Source: a virus (Duplodnaviria > Caudoviricetes). From it: a stretch of DNA of 64,000 nucleotides. The notes beneath the pieces are model-generated. The model worked only from the letters and a program-made list of their open reading frames with translations, was not told the DNA's origin and made no database searches. Of this stretch, positions 1 to 36,017 are shown one piece after another (position 1 is the stretch's first letter; every line of letters starts with the position of its first letter). Both the position numbers and the translations under genes were made by a program. The stretch covers positions 1 to 64,000 of the IMG/VR virus record IMGVR_UViG_3300037797_000133; one strand, written 5' to 3'.

Positions 1-1
1 C

Positions 2-160
2 GTCCGCACCTATCTGGCGACCCAGTACCCGGAGCCGGGGTGCGCTGCCCGCCTCGGTCTCGACACGCCGACCACGACGGTGTCGACCACGACGGTCCCG
101 CCGGCGGCGCCGGCCACCCCCACCCCTGCCCCCACGCCCACCACAACGGAGGTCCCATGA
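2..160 (+). CDS. 3' end of a Thr/Pro-rich protein (truncated by window edge)
   Basis: Open frame VRTYLATQ...PTTTEVP*; its TGA overlaps the next ATG (ATGA). Confidence 0.5.
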   Translation, partial: VRTYLATQYPEPGCAARLGLDTPTTTVSTTTVPPAAPATPTPAPTPTTTEVP

Positions 161-3900: not shown

Positions 3901-4148
3901 TCGAACTCCACCGTCGGCTCGGGGCGGTACCGGCGACGGATGGCGAGCGTCGCCCGGCGCGTGGCGTTCGGCTCGGCCCGGATGCCGTCTACGTCGAGCC
4001 GTGCGCCGGCGAGTTCCTGTCGCAGCAGGTGACGCACCGACTGGGCGACCGTCCGGCCGTTGGCGGCGGCGTCCCGCACGAGCGCGACCCGGAGGTCGTC
4101 GTCGACCCGCACCACGATCTGATGCGTCAGCGGACGCTCGGCGCTCAC
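3897..4148 (-). CDS. Ribbon-helix-helix DNA-binding protein
   Basis: QIVVRVDDDLRVAL...GRTVAQSVRHLL pattern. Confidence 0.65.
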   Translation of the reverse strand: MSAERPLTHQIVVRVDDDLRVALVRDAAANGRTVAQSVRHLLRQELAGARLDVDGIRAEPNATRRATLAIRRRYRPEPTVEFE

Positions 4149-4501
4149 TGCTTGCTCCCGTCGAACGCCGCCTCGTACGCCTCAAGCATCTCGCCGAAGC
4201 TGGCCCACAGGTCGAGGGGCGCGCAGTCGTCGACGATCGCCCGCAGGTCGAGTCGTCCCGTGGCGGCCATGAGGCGCACGTTGAGGTTGCGGTAGCCCTC
4301 TCGGGCGACGTAGCCGACGCACGGCTCCTCGCCGCCTTCGGGGGAGCCGTGGCACGCCATGACCGTGCGGAAGTCGTCGCTGTCGCCGACGGTGCAGGAG
4401 AGGCCGCGCATCAGCTCGAGGCCGAAGCCGGGGATGCGTTCGCCGCCGGCGGGGTTGGAGCGGCGCCACGGGCACGAGCCGCACGGGACGGTTGCGCTCA
4501 C
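4145..4501 (-). CDS. DUF6283-like Cys-rich phage protein
   Basis: PCGSCPWRR...MACH...PCVGY. Confidence 0.6.
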   Translation of the reverse strand: MSATVPCGSCPWRRSNPAGGERIPGFGLELMRGLSCTVGDSDDFRTVMACHGSPEGGEEPCVGYVAREGYRNLNVRLMAATGRLDLRAIVDDCAPLDLWASFGEMLEAYEAAFDGSKQ

Positions 4502-8285: not shown

Positions 8286-8543
8286 TCACGCCGCCGATGC
8301 CGGCAGCTGAACTTCGGCCTTCCAGGCCTCGCCGTTGGGGCCGAAGGCCCAGTGGGCGACCGGCGCCTGGGGCTCGACCTCGGCGATCCGGAAGCCACCG
8401 TGACCGGCGTAGACGTAGCGGACCTGGCCGGTGCTCCGAGCCGACTTGGCGGCACGAGCGATGGTCACCATCAGCGGGTTGCCGGCCGCCTGGCGAACCG
8501 TGGGGATCGGCCGGTTGCTGATGTCGGTGCGCTGCATCTCCAT
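8286..8543 (-). CDS. Hypothetical protein, first gene of leftward arm
   Basis: Leaderless start 7 nt after TAGGGT -10. Confidence 0.55.
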   Translation of the reverse strand: MEMQRTDISNRPIPTVRQAAGNPLMVTIARAAKSARSTGQVRYVYAGHGGFRIAEVEPQAPVAHWAFGPNGEAWKAEVQLPASAA

Positions 8544-8641
8544 GTCCATGACCCTACTCCTGGTGGGTCACCCGGTCAAGGGATATGACCCGCTATAGGT
8601 TGTGTCACATGACCCCCACGAAGTAGGGTCATGGACATGGA
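8539..8641. promoter_or_regulatory. Divergent promoter pair bounded by a perfect 20-bp inverted repeat
   Basis: TCCATGTCCATGACCCTACT (8539-58) / AGTAGGGTCATGGACATGGA (8622-41); TTGACC-N17-TAGGGT leftward; five TGACCC/GGGTCA boxes. Confidence 0.7.
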
Positions 8642-8867
8642 CGACAAGTCGGCCGCCCTGGCCAAGCTGGCGCGGACATCGCAGAAGGCCAAGGACTGGA
8701 CCGAGCAGAAGGCCAAGGACGCCGCCGCCGCCTACGAGGCAGGCGCCAGCGTCAGCGAGGTCGGCAAGGCGATGGGCGTCTCCCCTGAGGCCGCCCGCCG
8801 CTACCTGGAGCGTCAGGGCGTCCAGCGGCGGGAGGCCAACAAGCACCACGGGAGCGGGCAGCAGTGA
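8637..8867 (+). CDS. Small HTH protein
   Basis: GASVSEVGKAMGVSPEAARRYL. Confidence 0.75.
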   Translation: MDDKSAALAKLARTSQKAKDWTEQKAKDAAAAYEAGASVSEVGKAMGVSPEAARRYLERQGVQRREANKHHGSGQQ

Positions 8868-9635: not shown

Positions 9636-11075
9636 TCAGGCGCTGCGTGACGACCGGTACTCGGCGACCGGGATCGGCTCGACGCCTGGCCGCATCCGCT
9701 CCCGGTAGAGGCGGCCGTACAGGTGGTCGACCTCGTGTCCGACCAGCCCCGCTACGGCGCCGTCGTACGACACGAGCCGCACCGTCCCGTCCACGTCCTG
9801 CTGCTCGACGTGCAGCCCCGCCGGCCGGACCGCCTTGCCGCGCACGTCGAAGAACGACAGGCAGCCCTCGTACGCCTCGACGGTCTCCTCTGATTCGCCG
9901 ATCACCTTCGGGTTGATGAGGGTCAGCACCTCGCCCTCAGGGGTCCTGACGAGCGCCACAGCGCGGCTGATGCCGATCTGCGGGGCGGCGATCCCCATCC
10001 CGCCGGAGAAGGCGTGAGCGCCTCTCACCCGCTCCATGGCGGACGCGAGCTCGGCGATGACCCGCCGGCAGTCCTCCGCTTCGGCGGGCAGGTCGAACGG
10101 GCGGGCGACCTCGGCGAGGATCGGGTCGCCTTCCTGCACGACCCCGATCGCCGCCATCGTCTGCGACGGCAGAGCGTCGGTCGTCTGCGGCGGCGCGGCG
10201 AACGACCACTCCAGGCGATACCGGGCCTGGAGCGGCGGGTCGTCCGTCGACCACGAGAACGTCACCGTGTCCCCGTCGGTCTCCTGGGCGATCGCTGTCG
10301 GTAGCGGCTGGGCGTCCGCCGTCGGCGCCGTCTCCATGCCCCACACGGAGGGGAGGAGCGCGGCGGGGAACTCGAGCCGGACCGCCATGTGCCGGGTCGG
10401 GTGGCGGACGGCCCGCTGGTACCAGTGGCCCCACTGCTCGTCGGAGACGGTGTAGCCGTACTCGATCCACGCCTCCTGGCCGGGGTAGAGCGGGAAGCGG
10501 CGGCCGTCGGGTGACTCGAAGCGGAGCCACACCTCCTTCACGGCGTCCCAGTCGTCCTTGACGTCGAGGCTCATCGGGCCGGCGTTGTGGCGCGCCCACA
10601 GGTCGAGCGTCTCCCACGTGAGCGGACGCTCCCGGTAGAGCAACTTCGACCGTTCGGGGTCGCCGGGGTACCGGTCGACGGAGATGCGGACGAGGTAGCG
10701 GGTGACGGGCTCTGTGCCGTCGTTGCGGAGGAGACGCCGCTGGGTGGGGTGGTAGCTGGTCCCGTCGTAGGTGAGGGTCGCTTCGTCGTGCAGGACGACC
10801 AGAGCGCCGCTGGTGGCCGCCGGCTGGTGCTGGCGCCGCCCGGTCGACGGGACGAGGGCGTGGGCCCGCAGGAGCGCCCCTCCGGCGCCGAGCGCCCGGT
10901 CTGCCTCGTCGGCGAACTCGGCCGATGGGCGGGCGACACGGGACTCGACCTTGGACACGTACGAGGCCGTGTAGGTGGTCTCGTCTGCGAGCGACGCCTG
11001 CGACATGCCGCGCACGTGGCGCCAGTGCTTGAGGGTGGTCACGAACGCATCGTCGAGGGCGGTCACTGTGGACAC
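9636..11075 (-). CDS. XRE HTH + unknown beta-rich domain + peptide deformylase fusion
   Basis: N-terminal LKHWRHVRGMSQASLA...YVSKVES; C-terminal PDF motifs GMGIAAPQ, EGCLS, HEVDH all intact. Confidence 0.88.
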   Translation of the reverse strand: MSTVTALDDAFVTTLKHWRHVRGMSQASLADETTYTASYVSKVESRVARPSAEFADEADRALGAGGALLRAHALVPSTGRRQHQPAATSGALVVLHDEATLTYDGTSYHPTQRRLLRNDGTEPVTRYLVRISVDRYPGDPERSKLLYRERPLTWETLDLWARHNAGPMSLDVKDDWDAVKEVWLRFESPDGRRFPLYPGQEAWIEYGYTVSDEQWGHWYQRAVRHPTRHMAVRLEFPAALLPSVWGMETAPTADAQPLPTAIAQETDGDTVTFSWSTDDPPLQARYRLEWSFAAPPQTTDALPSQTMAAIGVVQEGDPILAEVARPFDLPAEAEDCRRVIAELASAMERVRGAHAFSGGMGIAAPQIGISRAVALVRTPEGEVLTLINPKVIGESEETVEAYEGCLSFFDVRGKAVRPAGLHVEQQDVDGTVRLVSYDGAVAGLVGHEVDHLYGRLYRERMRPGVEPIPVAEYRSSRSA

Positions 11076-12352: not shown

Positions 12353-12504
12353 GCGCCTACCGCAAGACGAAGCGCTTCCTCTACCGGGCGCTCAGCTTCT
12401 CCAACGACATCGACGCCGCCCGCAAGGGGCCGAAGGCGCTCGCCCGACGGCTCCTCCGCAAGGAGCTGCTCAAGGGCGCTGGCCGACTGTCGAGGCGCAT
12501 CTGA
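12349..12504 (+). CDS. Small basic protein
   Basis: TTG start overlapping upstream stop. Confidence 0.45.
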   Translation: MSAYRKTKRFLYRALSFSNDIDAARKGPKALARRLLRKELLKGAGRLSRRI

Positions 12505-12683
12505 TGGGCGACGGCTTCACCGCCGCCGAGTGGGCGGTCCTCGCCGCGTTCTGGGCGGCGGTCATCGCTCTCGCCTGCGGTCAGCCCTGGCTCGCCGCGG
12601 TGGCCGGTGTCGCCCTCGTCGCCGCGGTCTACGCCGCCCTGCGGCAGCCCGAGGGGCCCGAGCGGGCCCCCGGCGACCGGTGA
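12504..12683 (+). CDS. Small membrane protein
   Basis: Two TM segments, TGATG coupling. Confidence 0.55.
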   Translation: MGDGFTAAEWAVLAAFWAAVIALACGQPWLAAVAGVALVAAVYAALRQPEGPERAPGDR

Positions 12684-13160: not shown

Positions 13161-13339
13161 TGGCCCGCAAGCGGTTCGTCCCCAACGCCGGCGCTCGCAA
13201 CGACCGATGCCCGACGTGCGACGACACCGGGTCGACCCGAAGCGGTCGCCCCTGCATGCGCTGCACCGGCCGCAACGGCGGTCCTGGCCGGATCGTCCCG
13301 GGCCGCGAGCGCGGCCACCGCTACGGGAAGCGCCGGTGA
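13160..13339 (+). CDS. Small zinc-finger protein
   Basis: CPTC...CMRC. Confidence 0.5.
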   Translation: MARKRFVPNAGARNDRCPTCDDTGSTRSGRPCMRCTGRNGGPGRIVPGRERGHRYGKRR

Positions 13340-13665
13340 TGGCCGACCCGAAGGTCATCCGCTTCCCGAAGGCGACCACCGCCGAGGACAGCGAGCATCT
13401 CGCCGGGGCGCTCCGTGGCCTCAGCGCCGACGTCGGTGTCCGCTACGCCCGCGTCGCCGACGGCGGCCACCACGGGCGACCCCGGGTCGTCGTGGTCGTC
13501 GACGAGGTGCAGTCGTACCTCGGCCGGTCCCCGGTCAGCCGGGACATCGCCCGCCGGCTCGTCGACATCGCGAAGACGGGCCGGGCGGTCGACGTCACCG
13601 TCCAAGCCACCTACTCCAACCCGCAGGCAGTCCCGCTCGACCTGCGGGACGCCCTCACCCCCTAG
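13339..13665 (+). CDS. Truncated FtsK/TraB-like ATPase fragment (Walker B half only)
   Basis: VVVVDEVQSYLG...DIAKTG...DLRD aligns with TraB IFIDEAQRYIG...DIAKVG...DLRD; no Walker A. Confidence 0.65.
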   Translation: MADPKVIRFPKATTAEDSEHLAGALRGLSADVGVRYARVADGGHHGRPRVVVVVDEVQSYLGRSPVSRDIARRLVDIAKTGRAVDVTVQATYSNPQAVPLDLRDALTP

Positions 13666-14991: not shown

Positions 14992-15164
14992 TCGGCCTCG
15001 CCTTCGGGGCGGTCCGTCACCGGATCGGCCTCCTCGTCGTCATCGCGGTGATCATCGTCTTCGCCACCGGCCTCCCCCTGCGGGTCGAGGAGCACTTCGC
15101 CCCCGTCGACAACCCGTACGACGACACCCCCACGACCACCGAACCGGAGGTGGCATCACCGTGA
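14988..15164 (+). CDS. Small membrane protein
   Basis: One TM, coupled to DUF2637 gene. Confidence 0.5.
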   Translation: MIGLAFGAVRHRIGLLVVIAVIIVFATGLPLRVEEHFAPVDNPYDDTPTTTEPEVASP

Positions 15165-16234
15165 GCAGCGCCAACGGACAGCGCTACGCCGAAGGCGACA
15201 TCTTCACCGTCTGGCGCGACCAGACCGAGGAGTACGTCGAGGAAGAGGGCAGGGTCGCCGCCCGGCGCACCACCACCGAACGGCGCCCCCGTACGCCCAC
15301 CGCCGCCGAGGGACGGGAGGCCGCAGGGTCGCTCCTCTTCGACGGGATCACCGCCCTCGGCATCGCGGTCCTTGGGCTCATCGGCTTCTACGTGAGCTTC
15401 TCGACGGTCCGCGACTCGGCGGTCGGCCAGTCGTTCGGGTCGAAGGCGTGGGCGCTCCCGCTCACCGTCGACGCCGGCATCGCCGTCTTCACCGCCCTCG
15501 ACCTCCGCATGGCCGCCCACGGCATGCGCGCCCGCTGGGTGCGCGTGTTCCCGTGGGCGCTCAACGGCATCACCGTCTACCTGAACGGCGCCGAGCAGGC
15601 CACGTGGGCCGGCAAGATCGGCCACGCCGCCCTGCCGTTCATGTGGATCGGCGCCGTCGAGGCCGTCGCCCTCATCGTGAAGCGTCGCACCCAAGGCCCC
15701 AAGCCTGAGGTCGACCAGATCCCCCGGGCCCGCTGGCTGCTCGCCCCCGGCCCGACCCTGCTGCTGTGGCGGCGCATGCGCCTGTGGGGCGTCACGTCCT
15801 ACGACGAGGCGCTCGAGCGCGAGTGCGACCGTCGCCTCGTCCGGGCCCGTCTCGCCCAGCAGCACGGTTCGCTGCGCAAGCTCCCGGCCGAGACCAGGGA
15901 GCTGTACCGGATGGGCAAGCTCCGGGCCACCGACGTCGTCCTGGAGGTGCCCGCGGTCGTCACGGTCGACCCGCCGGCCGCTCCTGCGGCCCCTGAGGCG
16001 CCCGTGGCGGCTCCGACGCTCGTCGCCGTCCCTGCACTGCCGCCGGCCGATGAGGCCCGCCGGGAGGACGTTGAGACGGCCGCCCGCCGGATCGTCCGCG
16101 ACCAGTTCGACGGCAAGTGCCCCGGCCGCCCCACCCTCACCGCCGCCCTCAAGGCCGACGGACACACGATCAGCAACGCCGACGCCGCCGACCTGGTGCG
16201 CCGGCTGAAGGCCGAAGGGAACGACAGTGCTTGA
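15161..16234 (+). CDS. DUF2637 membrane protein (transfer/spread-associated)
   Basis: Four TM segments with LPLTVDAG, LLWRRMRLWG motif, Pro/Ala linker, C-terminal HTH-like PGRPTL...ISN. Confidence 0.75.
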   Translation: MSSANGQRYAEGDIFTVWRDQTEEYVEEEGRVAARRTTTERRPRTPTAAEGREAAGSLLFDGITALGIAVLGLIGFYVSFSTVRDSAVGQSFGSKAWALPLTVDAGIAVFTALDLRMAAHGMRARWVRVFPWALNGITVYLNGAEQATWAGKIGHAALPFMWIGAVEAVALIVKRRTQGPKPEVDQIPRARWLLAPGPTLLLWRRMRLWGVTSYDEALERECDRRLVRARLAQQHGSLRKLPAETRELYRMGKLRATDVVLEVPAVVTVDPPAAPAAPEAPVAAPTLVAVPALPPADEARREDVETAARRIVRDQFDGKCPGRPTLTAALKADGHTISNADAADLVRRLKAEGNDSA

Positions 16235-18494
16235 CCGCGAGGACAAGTCGCTGCGCCGCATACTCGAGCGCCGTAGTGGCCGGTACGTCAACGACGACCT
16301 CGCCGACGACATGCTCGGCCACATGGGCGTCGGCCCCGTCGCCGCCACCGTCGTCGAAGACGTCGACTGGGACGAGGAGCTGTCCGAGCTCGAAGACGTC
16401 ATCGACGTCGAGCCGATCGACCCGCCCGGCGATCTGCCCGACCGCGGGGCACCGAAGCTGCCCCGGGCGGACCGGGAGTCCCGGCCGGTTCTGCCCGCCT
16501 GGCTCGACGCCCCGAAGGCAGCGGTCAAGCAGCGCTGCCGGGACCTCAAGCACGACGTGAAGTTCCACGCCACCCGGGCGCCGTCCTACGCCGGTCGGGC
16601 CGTGAAGTACGCGCCCGCTGGCGTGGGCCGCACCTACCGGGGCCTGTACCGCTGGGCGACCGACTACGAGTCGGCGCCCGCCCGGTACCTGGAGGCGCAG
16701 CGGGGCAACACGTCCGCGTACCTGGCGCTCGCTCAGCAGCGAGACGAGCGGGTGCATGACCGGCGGTTCCTGGCGATGGGTCTCGGCTGCCTACTGCCGC
16801 TCACGGTCCTCGCCGTCTGGTTCGGGCTGACCGGACCGGAGCTGCCCGGACAGACCCGCCTCGTTGCCTTCGTGGCGGCCCTTGTGACGGTCGTGGTCCT
16901 CGGCCATATCGGGGCACCGGAGGACAAGCCGATCGTCGAGTCGGCCGCCGCCGGCCCGGCACGCCGCCGGATCACCTGGTCGATGCTGCGGGCCGCGTTC
17001 GAGGCCGAGGGCGTGAAGCTGTCCAAGGCCCGCCCCGACGGCGCCCCCGCCGACCCGGCTCGAGAGATGACGCTCGTCCGGGAGATCTCCCGCGACGCCC
17101 GAGACACCGGCTACGTGGCGACGATCGACCTGCCGTTGGGCAAGACCGCGGCGGACGCCATGGCGAAGCGGGACAAGATCGCCTCCGGGCTGTCCGTCTC
17201 CCGGGCCCAGGTGCACATCACCCCCGACGCGGACAGCGAGCGGCGCATCAACATCTACGTCGCCGACGTCGACCCGTTCACCCGCCCTCGCCGGGTCTCC
17301 CCGTTGGCGTCGCTGCGCCAGCTCGACTTCTGGGAGGGCTTCGACTTCGGCACCAACGCCAAGGGCGAACCGGTCCGGCTCAAGCTCGTGTGGACGCACC
17401 TGCTCGTCGCCGCCATCCCCCGGATGGGCAAGAGCTACGCCGCGCTCATCGCCGCGTGCGCCGCCGCCCTCGACCCGCGGGTGCGGATCATCATCCTCAA
17501 CGGCAAGAAGGGCGCCTGGCGTCACCTCGCCAAGGTCTGCCACCGCTACGTGGCCGGCGCCCGCGACGAGGCCGTCCTCTACGTGCTGCGCACCCTGCGC
17601 GAGTGCAAGGCCGACATCGACGCCCGCGGCGACCGCATCGAGGAACTCGACGAAAAGTACGGCTACGGCGACAAGCTCGTCCCGCAGGTCGCCTCCGACC
17701 CGAGCCAGGGCATGCCCCTCGTCGCGATCTTCATCGACGAAGCGCAGCGCTACATCGGGCACGGACAGTACGGCGGCGAGATCCTCGCCCTCTTGAAGGA
17801 CATCGCCAAGGTCGGACCCTCGGCCGGCTACATGCTGATCGTCGCTGTCCAGAAGCCGACCGGCGACGTCATCGACACCGACCTCCGGGACAACATGGGG
17901 CTCCGCTACGTGCTCCGCATGAAGACCTCGGCGGGTTCGAAGGCGGCGCTCGGCGAGATCACCCCGGGCTTCGACCCGGTGCAGTTCTCGGACAGGCACA
18001 AGGGCGTCGGGGTGCTCGACGGGTCGGACAACGAGGAAGAGTCGCTCGACGGCGCGGACATCGACATTGTCCGCACGGACAGCCTCGACATGGCGATGGT
18101 CGAGGAGATCGCGGACAGGGCCCATGCTGTCCGGACAGGCATGAACAAGCTGTCCGGCTACGCAGCGGGCGACGACCTGTCCGAGGAGTCGACGCCGTTC
18201 CTGCTGCTCGACCACCTGTCCGACGCCATCAAGCTCGGCGAGGACAAGGTGTGGTCAGCCGATCTGATCCGCCGCATCGCGGACAGTCACCCCGAGGCGT
18301 ACGACGGCTGGTCGCCCGACGACCTGGCCAACCACCTGAAGCCGTACGGGGTCGAGACGATCCAGATCAGCCGCACCGTCACGGACCCTGAGACGGGCGT
18401 GAAGCGCCAGAAGAACTGGCGTGGCGTCGCCGTCGCGGACCTCACCGAGGCCTACAACCGGGAGATGGCGAAGCGCGCCGCGCTCGGCCAGTGA
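16227..18494 (+). CDS. traB: TraB-type FtsK/SpoIIIE DNA translocase
   Basis: Two TM helices, Walker A-like AIPRMGKS, Walker B IFIDEAQ, QKP, C-terminal winged helix (VWSADLIRRI...WSPDDLANHLKPYGV). Confidence 0.82.
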   Translation: MLDREDKSLRRILERRSGRYVNDDLADDMLGHMGVGPVAATVVEDVDWDEELSELEDVIDVEPIDPPGDLPDRGAPKLPRADRESRPVLPAWLDAPKAAVKQRCRDLKHDVKFHATRAPSYAGRAVKYAPAGVGRTYRGLYRWATDYESAPARYLEAQRGNTSAYLALAQQRDERVHDRRFLAMGLGCLLPLTVLAVWFGLTGPELPGQTRLVAFVAALVTVVVLGHIGAPEDKPIVESAAAGPARRRITWSMLRAAFEAEGVKLSKARPDGAPADPAREMTLVREISRDARDTGYVATIDLPLGKTAADAMAKRDKIASGLSVSRAQVHITPDADSERRINIYVADVDPFTRPRRVSPLASLRQLDFWEGFDFGTNAKGEPVRLKLVWTHLLVAAIPRMGKSYAALIAACAAALDPRVRIIILNGKKGAWRHLAKVCHRYVAGARDEAVLYVLRTLRECKADIDARGDRIEELDEKYGYGDKLVPQVASDPSQGMPLVAIFIDEAQRYIGHGQYGGEILALLKDIAKVGPSAGYMLIVAVQKPTGDVIDTDLRDNMGLRYVLRMKTSAGSKAALGEITPGFDPVQFSDRHKGVGVLDGSDNEEESLDGADIDIVRTDSLDMAMVEEIADRAHAVRTGMNKLSGYAAGDDLSEESTPFLLLDHLSDAIKLGEDKVWSADLIRRIADSHPEAYDGWSPDDLANHLKPYGVETIQISRTVTDPETGVKRQKNWRGVAVADLTEAYNREMAKRAALGQ

Positions 18495-18500
18495 TCCGTC

Positions 18501-18587
18501 GCTACGCGTAGCACCCCCAGCCGCTACGCGTAGCACTAGTGCTAGCACCTGAGACTGGTTCTCACCTGGGCCTTAGCGGGCTAGCAC
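18501..18587 (+). repeat. clt-like repeat cluster right after traB
   Basis: GCTACGCGTAGCAC at 18501 and 18523; GCTAGCAC at 18541 and 18580 (core TAGCAC x4). Confidence 0.6.
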
Positions 18588-18684
18588 CAGATCTGCGACT
18601 CCGCCGAAACCGTGCCGGGGGGCCGGTTCTCGGTGGGGTCGCAGCAGCCGCTACCCGCTACGCGACCCCACCCAGGAGACCGCC

Positions 18685-19101
18685 ATGCACGTCCACTACG
18701 AGATCTCCCAGAAGCGCTCCACCGAAGGCCACCTGCGGCTCACCGCCGAGCAGGAGCACGACTACAAGAAGGCCCGCACCGACGAGCAGCGCAAGGCCGC
18801 CGTCCGGGCCGCGATCCTCGCCCACGCCGACGAGACCGACGACTGGGCATACGACGACCTGCTGACCCTGTCCGCTGTCCCCGACGACGCCGACCACCCG
18901 CTGCTCGTCGAAGCCGACAAGCTGCGGACAGGCCGACTTGTCCGCCGCGAGGAGCGCCTGCGGACAGCGCTGCTGTCCGGCGGGCTGTCCGAGGAGGACG
19001 AGCTGCGGCTGTCCGCCACCCGCGCTGTCCTGTCCGACCGCGGCGAGATCCTCGAAGACTGCCCGGGCCTCCCGGACATCGAGCACCTCGACTGGGCCTG
19101 A
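18685..19101 (+). CDS. Hypothetical protein
   Basis: AGGAG RBS, typical codon usage. Confidence 0.6.
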   Translation: MHVHYEISQKRSTEGHLRLTAEQEHDYKKARTDEQRKAAVRAAILAHADETDDWAYDDLLTLSAVPDDADHPLLVEADKLRTGRLVRREERLRTALLSGGLSEEDELRLSATRAVLSDRGEILEDCPGLPDIEHLDWA

Positions 19102-19159
19102 CCAGACCCTGTCCGTTTGCCCGACACAACCCGGGCCCGCGGGGCTACCGTCGGGAGGC

Positions 19160-19345
19160 ATGCGGTACACGGCAGCGGTGAAGACGGCAGAGCGACTCCC
19201 GCGCCGCACGCTCGAGCAGCGGGCGGAGCGGCTGCTGCGGGTGTGGGAGAACCTCGGCGACAAGATGTCCCGCGGCGACCGGATCAAGCTCGCCGCCGCA
19301 CGGGAGGCGCTCAACCTTCCGCCGCTCTACGGGCTCGAGCCCTGA
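19160..19345 (+). CDS. Hypothetical protein
   Basis: GGAGG RBS. Confidence 0.5.
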   Translation: MRYTAAVKTAERLPRRTLEQRAERLLRVWENLGDKMSRGDRIKLAAAREALNLPPLYGLEP

Positions 19346-19394
19346 ACGCCCTGAGGCCCCGCACCGGACGTACCGGGCGGGGCCTCAGGGCGTT
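19345..19394. terminator. Strong hairpin between convergent operons
   Basis: 18-bp stem AACGCCCTGAGGCCCCGC/GCGGGGCCTCAGGGCGTT. Confidence 0.7.
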
Positions 19395-34796: not shown

Positions 34797-35107
34797 TCTG
34801 GCTCGCCGTCCTCGCCGGCCGGGCGTGGCTCTGGTCCTACGGGCTGAACGCCGTCTACGCCGTCGGTCTCATCGTCGGCGCCGCGGCCGGCTGGGTGGCC
34901 CGCGAGTTCGCCGGCGCCTACCTCCCCCAGCTCGACGCCGAACCCGGCGCCACCTACGGGCGCCTGGTGCGCACCACCCGCCAGCAGCTCCTCGACCGGG
35001 TCGCCGCCCGCTCCCAGACGCTCCGCCACCGCCAGCTCGACACGGCCGAGATCGCCGCGCTCGACCTCGACGACGACGAGCTCGAGCCGAAGGTGGCGGC
35101 GGCGTGA
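34793..35107 (+). CDS. Membrane hypothetical protein
   Basis: Coupled. Confidence 0.45.
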   Translation: MIWLAVLAGRAWLWSYGLNAVYAVGLIVGAAAGWVAREFAGAYLPQLDAEPGATYGRLVRTTRQQLLDRVAARSQTLRHRQLDTAEIAALDLDDDELEPKVAAA

Positions 35108-35268
35108 GCTCGAGCACCTGCACCCGTTGCGAGCTCGAGCTCGAGGCCGGCGACGAGCTCACGCGGGACGGCCTGCCGTACTGCTCGGACCGGTGCGCCG
35201 AGCTCGGCCCGAAGCCGGTGGTGCTCGAGGGGCAGCGCGCCCTGTTCGAGCTCGAGGCGACGTCGTGA
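35104..35268 (+). CDS. Small zinc-finger protein
   Basis: CTRC...YCSDRC. Confidence 0.5.
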   Translation: MSSSTCTRCELELEAGDELTRDGLPYCSDRCAELGPKPVVLEGQRALFELEATS

Positions 35269-36017
35269 GCACGCTCGAGCGAGTCGAGCTCGAGGTGGGC
35301 TACGCCGCCCCGGCCATGCCGGACTCGCCGGTGATGGCCGCCTCCAGATGGCCCACGAATGCCGAGCTCGTTGCCGACGTGGCGCGCCTTGGATGGTTGC
35401 GCTCAAGCGACACGGTGCTCGACCCGACGTACGGCCGGGGCCGCTGGTGGGCCAAGTGGCGGCCCGCCCGCCTCGTCGCGACCGACATCCGCCTCCGTGG
35501 AGCTCGAGACGCACGACCCCATGACGCCCGCTGCGACTTCCGTGCCCTGCCGTTCCGCTCGAGCTCGTTCGACGCCGTCGCATGGGACCCGGCCTACGTC
35601 GCAGCCGGCGGCAGGAAGACGACGGGCATGGTCGACTTCCACGACCGGTACGGGATGGACGACGCCCCCGCCACGCCGGCCGAGCTCCAAGCCCACAACA
35701 ACGCCGGACTGCCCGAGCTCGTCCGCGTGCTCAAGCCCGGCGGGATCCTGCTGGCGAAGACGCAGGACTACGTGTCGTCCGGGAAGCTCTGGCCGGGCAC
35801 GCACTACACCCTGACGGCCGCCCTGGAGCTCGAGCTCGAGCTCGTCGACCGTCTCGAGCACATCGGCTCCCCGCGCCCGCAGCCGCCCCGGTCTCGAGCG
35901 GACGGCCAGCCGGTGCGCCAGCAGCACAGCCGCCGAAATCTGTCGACGCTGTTCGTGTTCCGGAAGCCGCTCGAGCGACGCCGTCGCCAGCCCTCCCTGC
36001 TGGAGGTGCCGGCATGA
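35265..36017 (+). CDS. Amino (N6A/N4C)-type DNA methyltransferase
   Basis: VLDPTYGRG SAM motif, FDAVAWDPAY (DPPY variant), RVLKPGG. Confidence 0.7.
   Translation: MSTLERVELEVGYAAPAMPDSPVMAASRWPTNAELVADVARLGWLRSSDTVLDPTYGRGRWWAKWRPARLVATDIRLRGARDARPHDARCDFRALPFRSSSFDAVAWDPAYVAAGGRKTTGMVDFHDRYGMDDAPATPAELQAHNNAGLPELVRVLKPGGILLAKTQDYVSSGKLWPGTHYTLTAALELELELVDRLEHIGSPRPQPPRSRADGQPVRQQHSRRNLSTLFVFRKPLERRRRQPSLLEVPA

Follow-up and report, generated by a model that had tools for sequence, protein, structure and literature searches.

A fixed-spacing TAGCAC repeat array behind a TraB-type translocase gene in a phage-like genome, a candidate clt locus

The traB region and the repeats that follow it

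The window (the whole stretch of DNA analysed, 64,000 nt) makes up positions 1 to 64,000 of IMG/VR virus record IMGVR_UViG_3300037797_000133. The assembly is a single record of 78,596 bp and encodes a large terminase, a portal, a tail fibre, a serine integrase, a replication initiator and a 1,339-aa ORF of tape-measure size; because these phage genes lie on the same record, the transfer module described here sits inside a phage-like genome. The database has it as a linear record with 87% completeness. A direct terminal repeat of 151 bp is present at its two ends (window 1–151 and contig 78446–78596, 98.7% identity, 2 mismatches), and because of this repeat we take the record to be probably a complete circular or terminally redundant genome. 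The features of the region, in window coordinates, are:

15161–16234, + strand: DUF2637 membrane protein gene (Pfam PF10935, E 4e-23), overlapping the start of traB
16227–18494, + strand: traB-like gene encoding a 755-aa FtsK-family dsDNA translocase (NCBIfam, phrog, PDB profile, AF2 and Foldseek)
17989–18286, no single strand: left CGGACAG/CTGTCCG cluster, 9–10 copies in both orientations, in the 3′ end of traB
18183–18491, + strand: C-terminal winged-helix segment of TraB (aa about 657–755; AF2 model, 103 aa)
18507–18514, + strand: array site 1, CGTAGCAC, in the right half of palindrome GCTACGCGTAGC (18501–18512)
18529–18536, + strand: array site 2, CGTAGCAC, at a step of +22, within the second palindrome copy (18523–18534)
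18541–18548, + strand: array site 3, GCTAGCAC, at +34; overlaps the inverted copy at 18539–18546, the two jointly forming the 10-bp palindrome GTGCTAGCAC (18539–18548)
18572–18579, + strand: array site 4, degenerate CTTAGCGG, at +65; relatives have a TAGC core at the same +31 step
18580–18587, + strand: array site 5, GCTAGCAC, at +73, directly abutting CTTAGCGG
18593–18644, + strand: G+C-rich stem-loop with 24-nt arms (inverted repeat; RNA fold −49.9 kcal/mol, z −2.4)
18648–18664, + strand: CCGCTAC twice and GCTACGCG, a possible but weak further half-site just ahead of the next gene's ribosome-binding site
18685–19101, + strand: ORF138, an orphan 138-aa gene downstream of the array (GC3 0.93)
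18868–19115, no single strand: right CGGACAG/CTGTCCG cluster, 8 copies, in ORF138 and just beyond
19345–19394, no single strand: 50-bp palindrome (self-BLAST and sequence), between the rightward tra operon and the leftward early operon

The TraB-like protein carries Walker A (IPRMGKS) and Walker B (FIDEAQ) motifs and two hydrophobic helices at about aa 181–229. A Pfam search with the 755-aa sequence gave no match; the protein matched phrog_1358 (FtsK/SpoIIIE-like) at E 6e-28 and the NCBIfam model plasmid_TraB (NF041214) at E 2e-14 with 53 bits, short of the curated cut-off of 800 bits, which by profile score makes it a distant clade of the plasmid_TraB superfamily and not an equivalog. A HMMER sweep gathered 2,014 relatives (280 at E < 1e-30), and a profile of 82 relatives matched the FtsK motor 2iuu in the PDB at E 7.5e-17. 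The AlphaFold (AF2) model (pLDDT 87) led Foldseek to the FtsK motor structures 6t8g and 2ius at E 1e-13 (6t8g, E 2.8e-13). Modelled alone, the C-terminal domain (103 aa, pLDDT 87) has the topology H-E-H-H-H-E-E-H. Every structural neighbour it has is a DNA binder of the winged-helix kind (Rex, PadR, MarR-like proteins and the Orc1/Cdc6 winged-helix domain), the scores being moderate (Foldseek E 0.02 or worse; VIA Z 5–6.4). FtsK gamma was not among them in the fold search, an absence that carries no evidential weight. The domain also aligns with the C-terminus of pSVH1 TraB. Profile, structure model and fold neighbours thus agree with the first-pass annotation that the repeats adjoin a TraB-type translocase gene with a C-terminal winged helix: the modelled protein combines a membrane anchor, an FtsK/TraB-type motor and a C-terminal winged helix, the fold class of the last being moderately supported.

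The DUF2637 protein encoded upstream has a C-terminal tail that looks HTH-like by eye, and BLAST found no similarity between it and SpdB2 of pSVH1. Downstream, ORF138 has no Pfam, NCBIfam or PHROG match and drew a blank in a protein atlas search; comparison with SpdA-like protein and with Orf140 likewise gave no similarity (E 0.78 against the SpdA-like ORF of the Streptomyces plasmid L075, listed below). A short ORF at 13207–13665 contains an FtsK-like Walker B stretch (VVVVVDEVQ...) without a Walker A motif, and looks like a partial TraB paralogue upstream in the same operon. Beyond ORF138 there is an unlisted ORF of 61 aa that has a good ribosome-binding site (19161–19345), and the 50-bp palindrome beyond is a putative bidirectional terminator closing the tra operon.

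The traB-like ORF ends with TGA at 18492–18494 and the next gene begins with ATG at 18685, leaving a spacer of 190 bp. Direct reading bore out the first-pass annotation's report of a 14-mer occurring twice, 22 bp apart: GCTACGCGTAGCAC stands at 18501–18514 and 18523–18536, with a start-to-start distance of 22 bp. With the preceding C it extends to the 15-mer CGCTACGCGTAGCAC (18500–18514 and 18522–18536), each copy of which contains the 12-bp palindrome GCTACGCGTAGC. SSTAGCAC 8-mers begin at 18507, 18529, 18541 and 18580; a degenerate version stands at 18572 and one in inverted orientation at 18539. This gives five direct sites and one inverted site of SSTAGCAC type, the first of which lies 13 bp past the traB stop codon. 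GCTAGCAC, which had been described as occurring twice more, is present, the count being three once the inverted copy is included (18541–18548 and 18580–18587 on the + strand, 18539–18546 on the − strand). At site 5 lies a 12-mer, GCTAGCACCAGA, that is identical to a 12-mer in the Nonomuraea array described below. A recurrence of GCTAC near 18650–18660 had also been noted; CCGCTAC occurs there twice, together with GCTACGCG, at 18648–18664, and carries little weight because GCTACGC has 24 copies genome-wide. The stem-loop at 18593–18644, which lies between the array and the next gene and is without a T run, probably terminates the traB transcript. A search of 17900–19300 for sigma-70-like promoters found none.

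Over the whole genome TAGCAC is present at its chance total, with 8 copies in 78,596 bp against 8.3 in shuffles, and five of the 8 fall within the 80 bp from 18509 to 18587. In an unbiased local-clustering scan, which covered every hexamer, heptamer and octamer of the genome, TAGCAC was the most locally clustered hexamer (score 3.6e-9). The genome-wide count of the 8-mer that the first-pass annotation had proposed as a check points the same way: SSTAGCAC has 7 copies, 5 of them in the array, and is thus locally enriched.

Array conservation beside related traB genes

The closest TraB proteins, P0002 (76% identical), P0003 (46%) and P0004 (39%), all came from Logan assemblies. Arrays were compared at the DNA level on relatives with TraB at about 30% identity (27–34%), and pSVH1 (L077) served as positive control. 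The loci, with their TAGC-core steps where an array was measured, are:

Window: steps 22/12/31/8
L074, circular 18-kb Streptomyces plasmid with AICE gene content (NZ_CP107792.1): steps 22/12/31/7
L076, Nonomuraea gerenzanensis chromosome: steps 22/12/31/8, plus one extra core upstream
L073, Pseudonocardia alni pPaSha2 (CP052773.1, 41.9 kb): steps 22/12/31/7, on the opposite strand, a small gene intervening between traB and the array
L020, 69-kb provirus (IMG/VR; TraB 28% identity, HMM E 3e-252): steps 22/12/38, with a degenerate site 4, TGCAGCAC, at the +31 step
L001 and L002, two metagenome contigs: in L002, steps 21/12/41 with the word TCTAGACC
L075, Streptomyces decoyicus plasmid (NZ_CP107886.1)

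L074, L076, L001 and L002 have the same kind of array just 3′ of the traB stop, and at the level of sequence comparison the array is shown to be conserved beside the same TraB clade in five or six other loci. The L020 array reads, in order, GGTAGCAC / CGTAGCAC / GCTAGCAC / TGCAGCAC / CGTAGCAC, its first site overlapping the TAG stop. When IMG/VR was scanned for the exact 14-mer, 70 loci were found, a single one of which (L020) has a TraB homologue, with the 14-mer directly after its stop codon. The arrays align almost gap-free with 57% column identity, beside TraBs that are 27–34% identical. A word-blind scan of 1.83 Mb for the same 5-mer at 0/+22/+34 produced no runs of hits outside the window, L020, L074 and L076 arrays. 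The densest TAGC/GCTA stretch is the array beside traB in the window, L073, L074, L076, L001 and L002; it does not lie beside traB in L075 or in pSVH1, where its lack was expected.

TraB is the only gene next to the array that is common to every locus. A small TM/zinc-ribbon gene abuts the array in six relatives and has no counterpart in the 78-kb genome, and in L073 the DUF2637 gene is the immediate upstream neighbour of traB; in L074 it stands two genes further upstream. The alignments mark the array as a DNA-level module under purifying selection. What is conserved is the direct 8-mer, NNTAGCRS, which recurs at set positions on roughly one face of the helix; dyad symmetry is not the conserved feature, since site 1 of L020 keeps the 8-mer GGTAGCAC without the palindrome.

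Searches of viral and genome contigs with TraB alone or with the relatives' alignment returned no related loci, and metagenomes gave only L001 and L002; the region itself had no match in plasmids by blastn or in GenBank phages by tblastn. Two spaced GCTAGCAC copies in viral contigs were mostly chance or unrelated matches, none of them with TraB. Multi-copy TAGCAC/GCTAGCAC arrays were seen in the high-GC viral contigs L159 (an IMG/VR contig, at about 4030–4150, with steps 22/11/34/23), L137 and L138. No TraB homologue was present in the stretches of these contigs that were examined, and the ORFs flanking the L159 array had no Pfam match.

Two of the relatives have further features of their own. 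L073, deposited as a plasmid, has a holin gene and an integrase besides DUF2637–traB and the five-site array in inverted form, and may be another phage/transfer-module hybrid. In L074, eight copies of TTCTGTCA(G) at 12414–12663, between a YfjI-family gene and a small HTH gene, look like replication iterons.

A second clustered word in traB and ORF138

The clustering scan also picked out CGGACAG/CTGTCCG (8-mer CGGACAGS), with 46 copies in the genome and 22 of these in 16380–19115. There are 14 CGGACAG copies in traB, where synonymous-codon shuffles predict 1.3 (maximum 6 in 1,000-shuffle runs; z 8.6), and its last 513 nt hold 9, against 0.6–0.95 expected from the same kind of shuffle. The words are non-palindromic and sit in several reading frames and both orientations. 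The left cluster includes the palindrome CTGTCCGGACAG at 18127–18138; the right cluster has four direct CTGTCCG copies at steps of 12/24/21, plus inverted partners. No comparable embedded word was found in the traB genes of L001, L073–L076 or pSVH1, which marks CGGACAGS as a lineage-specific DNA-level signal around the conserved array, with clear DNA-level selection in the 3′ end of traB and in ORF138. It may represent accessory TraB sites, the element's true TRS or a target of ORF138 or another protein. CTGTCCG was also considered as a DnaA box and set aside, as its 3′ half does not fit the Streptomyces box TTGTCCACA.

Likeness to known transfer loci and possible binders of the array

TraB proteins recognise 8-bp repeats through a winged helix (PMC4447253, PMC4170104, PMC3583192). 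For pSVH1 of Streptomyces venezuelae, the accounts in PMC3583192 and PMC4447253, which cite Reuther 2006 and Vogelmann 2011, have the TraB winged helix reading the 8-bp TRS GACCCGGA, and the former, citing Vogelmann 2011, attributes this to helix alpha3. In our control, GACCCGG lies at +5, 16, 38, 70 and 91 after the traB stop (steps 11/22/32/21), with an inverted copy at +108. The window's array is like this clt in that it starts a few bp past the traB stop, with five direct copies over about 90 bp and an inverted copy; in a 14-bp repeat 21–22 bp apart; in spacings near multiples of the helical turn (11/22/32/21 in pSVH1 and 22/12/31/8 here); and in a cognate TraB with an alignable C-terminal winged helix. 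It is unlike it in its word, SSTAGCAC being unrelated to GACCCGGA, and in the embedding of sites 1–3 in perfect palindromes. The TraB of the window is only about 29% identical to that of pSVH1 over the motor and scores far under the plasmid_TraB cut-off, and the setting is a 78-kb genome with phage virion genes and a predicted clt, rather than a small plasmid.

The clt of pWTY27 consists of 16 bp of traA and 159 bp downstream, is footprinted by TraA, and contains direct and inverted repeats of 7-bp words in two classes, DC1 and DC2 (PMC3583192). As in pWTY27, the locus here runs from the end of the tra gene into adjacent non-coding DNA, direct and inverted repeats are mixed, and two classes of word coexist (DC1/DC2 there, TAGCAC/CGGACAG here). 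The words themselves differ, the window's second word lies mostly inside coding sequence, and a conserved array with fixed spacing is not reported for pWTY27. The pSVH1 control and pWTY27 (PMC3583192) together sustain the first-pass annotation's claim that the repeats are positioned like proven clt loci.

Because their exact spacing recurs behind related TraB genes, the repeats are very probably a DNA site on which the pump or a partner protein loads. On balance we lean towards the array at 18507–18587 being the clt, the cis-acting transfer locus, of the element, since its position, extent, copy number and turn-multiple spacing match pSVH1, and since the clt of pWTY27 is footprinted by its TraA. 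The C-terminus of the window's TraB, confidently modelled as a winged helix, aligns with that of pSVH1 TraB. As a clt, the five direct SSTAGCAC-type dsDNA 8-mers would be bound by the winged-helix domains of a membrane-anchored TraB hexamer, which would load there; the FtsK-type motor would then drive the 78-kb circle into an adjacent compartment of the hypha or into a recipient, and the flanking CGGACAGS arrays could act as a second layer, either of accessory TraB sites or of sites for another protein. We infer that the protein binding the array is TraB itself and no partner protein, that transfer is what the site serves, and that the module is, as first suggested, functional in cis. The identification of SSTAGCAC as the cognate loading site is strengthened by the retention of the 8-mer at fixed spacing in relatives, and weakened by the rival word CGGACAGS and the palindromic nature of sites 1 and 2.

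Short DNA words also load a related motor on the bacterial chromosome: KOPS are oriented 8-mers, dispersed with a polar bias along the chromosome, that are read by the FtsK gamma winged helix of a hexameric translocase. The likeness lies in an FtsK-family motor with a C-terminal winged helix and in short words that load or orient it, and the motor fold match is strong. KOPS are dispersed, whereas the window has a single tight array, and FtsK gamma was not recovered for the C-terminal domain.

Four observations sit less easily with the clt reading. TRS words vary from one characterised plasmid to the next, whereas the TAGC core is kept in different genera; this is unusual for a TRS and might mean that the binder is something more conserved, for instance the DUF2637 tail or a host factor. 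Sites 1–3 form perfect palindromes, typical of dimeric regulators and of the sps sites bound by SpdA (PMC4170104). CGGACAGS, 8 bp long and non-palindromic like a classical TRS, may be the true TraB word. Lastly, the C-terminal domain of TraB matches winged-helix folds at moderate scores (Z 5–6.4), FtsK gamma not being one of them.

The first two of these would be explained if the TAGC array were a platform for another DNA-binding protein, of the transfer or spreading module or of the host, instead of a TraB loading site, a reading that we regard as doubtful yet worth keeping in view. Candidates for such a binder are the HTH-like DUF2637 tail, the small TM/zinc-ribbon protein of the relatives and a chromosomal factor, and its role could be to regulate downstream genes or to position or spread the plasmid, as the SpdA–sps pair does. 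The sps site of pIJ101 and its relatives is a 12-bp palindrome, CGTCACGTGACG, that occurs in 2–3 copies and is bound by SpdA2 (PMC4170104). Like it, the window has a perfect palindrome of 12 bp repeated near transfer or spread genes (2–3 times in sps, sometimes next to traB), and the 10–12-bp perfect palindromes in sites 1–3, two of them 22 bp apart, resemble both sps and the TraR operator of pSVH1 (PMC4447253). Unlike sps, which is nearly invariant, the array palindrome varies (GCTACGCGTAGC, GCTATCGATAGC, GGTCTAGACC), with only the TAGC core and the spacing kept; CGTCACGTGACG itself is absent here, the palindrome being GCTACGCGTAGC.

Gene content cuts both ways. The TAGC core has been kept although the TraBs beside it share only some 30% identity; traB comes with a DUF2637 gene in the window, L073 and L074; the zinc-ribbon gene abuts the array in six relatives; and the GCTAGCAC-type arrays of viral contigs L159, L137 and L138 stand in stretches where no TraB was seen. 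Against a binder other than TraB, the zinc-ribbon gene is absent from the 78-kb genome, ORF138 is without similarity to SpdA-like protein, the 8-mer and not the dyad survives at site 1 of L020, and a scan covering about 30 of the window's ORFs, a subset of them, turned up no GntR regulator; GntR genes are present in L074 and L075. The two kinds of site also occur apart. L075 contains eight copies of TCACGTGA(C), the classical sps palindrome, at 8497–8610, inside a 141-aa ORF (8415–8840, − strand) that is presumably a SpdA homologue, and it has its own, separate GGTAG-type repeats next to traB (the traB region is present twice in this plasmid); the two site kinds are therefore distinct, and the possession of a classical sps/SpdA pair elsewhere in L075 argues against this rival reading of the array.

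It is unlikely that CGGACAGS is the real TraB word, with clt a zone of roughly 1.1 kb (17989–19115) in coding sequence and the TAGC array serving otherwise. In favour of this are the concentration of 22 of the 46 genome copies in 16380–19115, the presence in traB of 14 copies where 1.3 are expected, spread over several frames and both orientations, and the 12/24/21 steps of the right cluster, which resemble the TRS spacings of pSVH1; moreover, a proven clt may lie partly inside a tra gene (pWTY27, PMC3583192). Yet the word is lineage-specific, with none in the traB genes of L001, L073–L076 or pSVH1, whereas the TAGC array tracks the whole clade, and ORF138 or another phage protein is an equally possible binder of it.

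Very improbable is an action of the repeats in RNA, with the palindromes pairing as a 12-bp hairpin after the stop to form a traB terminator or mRNA-stability element: the arms at 18501–18512 and 18523–18534 are 100% complementary, the same kind of hairpin can form in L074 and L001, and 5 of 16 predicted pairs have double changes, but RNAalifold gives an unfavourable covariation term (+2.9), L020 and L002 have broken pairs, sites 3–5 keep core and spacing outside the hairpin, a separate strong stem-loop (18593–18644) already lies 3′ of the array, and both the L020 8-mer without palindrome and the L073 array, wholly inverted with another gene between it and traB, argue against it.

We return to the clt reading for what it would mean. 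Tentatively, the element could be a virion-forming temperate actinophage that has an intact, selectively maintained TraB–clt module and may, as a second way of moving, pump its circular dsDNA genome, free of capsids, between hyphae or into recipients in the manner of an AICE; the TAGC array would then be the general loading site of an uncharacterised TraB clade found in AICEs, plasmids and proviruses, and CGGACAGS a second recognition layer. To our knowledge, clt has been defined in only a few small Streptomyces plasmids, and our search of the clt literature returned plasmid cases only. In the papers covered, a clt motif has not been described for AICE-type elements (PMC9513070), in which clt is still assumed (PMC11571958). 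While the clt concept is known, the word, the fixed spacing of five sites, the conservation along a TraB clade and the presence in a virion-encoding genome appear to be new.

The five-site array with fixed spacing is a concrete, testable candidate loading site. It accompanies a single TraB clade, seen in Streptomyces, Nonomuraea, Pseudonocardia, metagenomic contigs and two phage-like records, and can serve as a search pattern when chromosomes are screened for clt-like sites. At the sequence level, nothing argues better for a working phage-borne transfer module than this intact array in a genome that also has terminase, portal and tail genes.

Two features of the window lie away from the tra region. 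The top clustered heptamer of the genome belongs to a dense GAGCTC/CTCGAG array at 35035–35365, and at 9636–11075 on the − strand a 479-aa protein is encoded in which an XRE-type HTH is fused to a polypeptide deformylase domain (Pfam E 3e-30).
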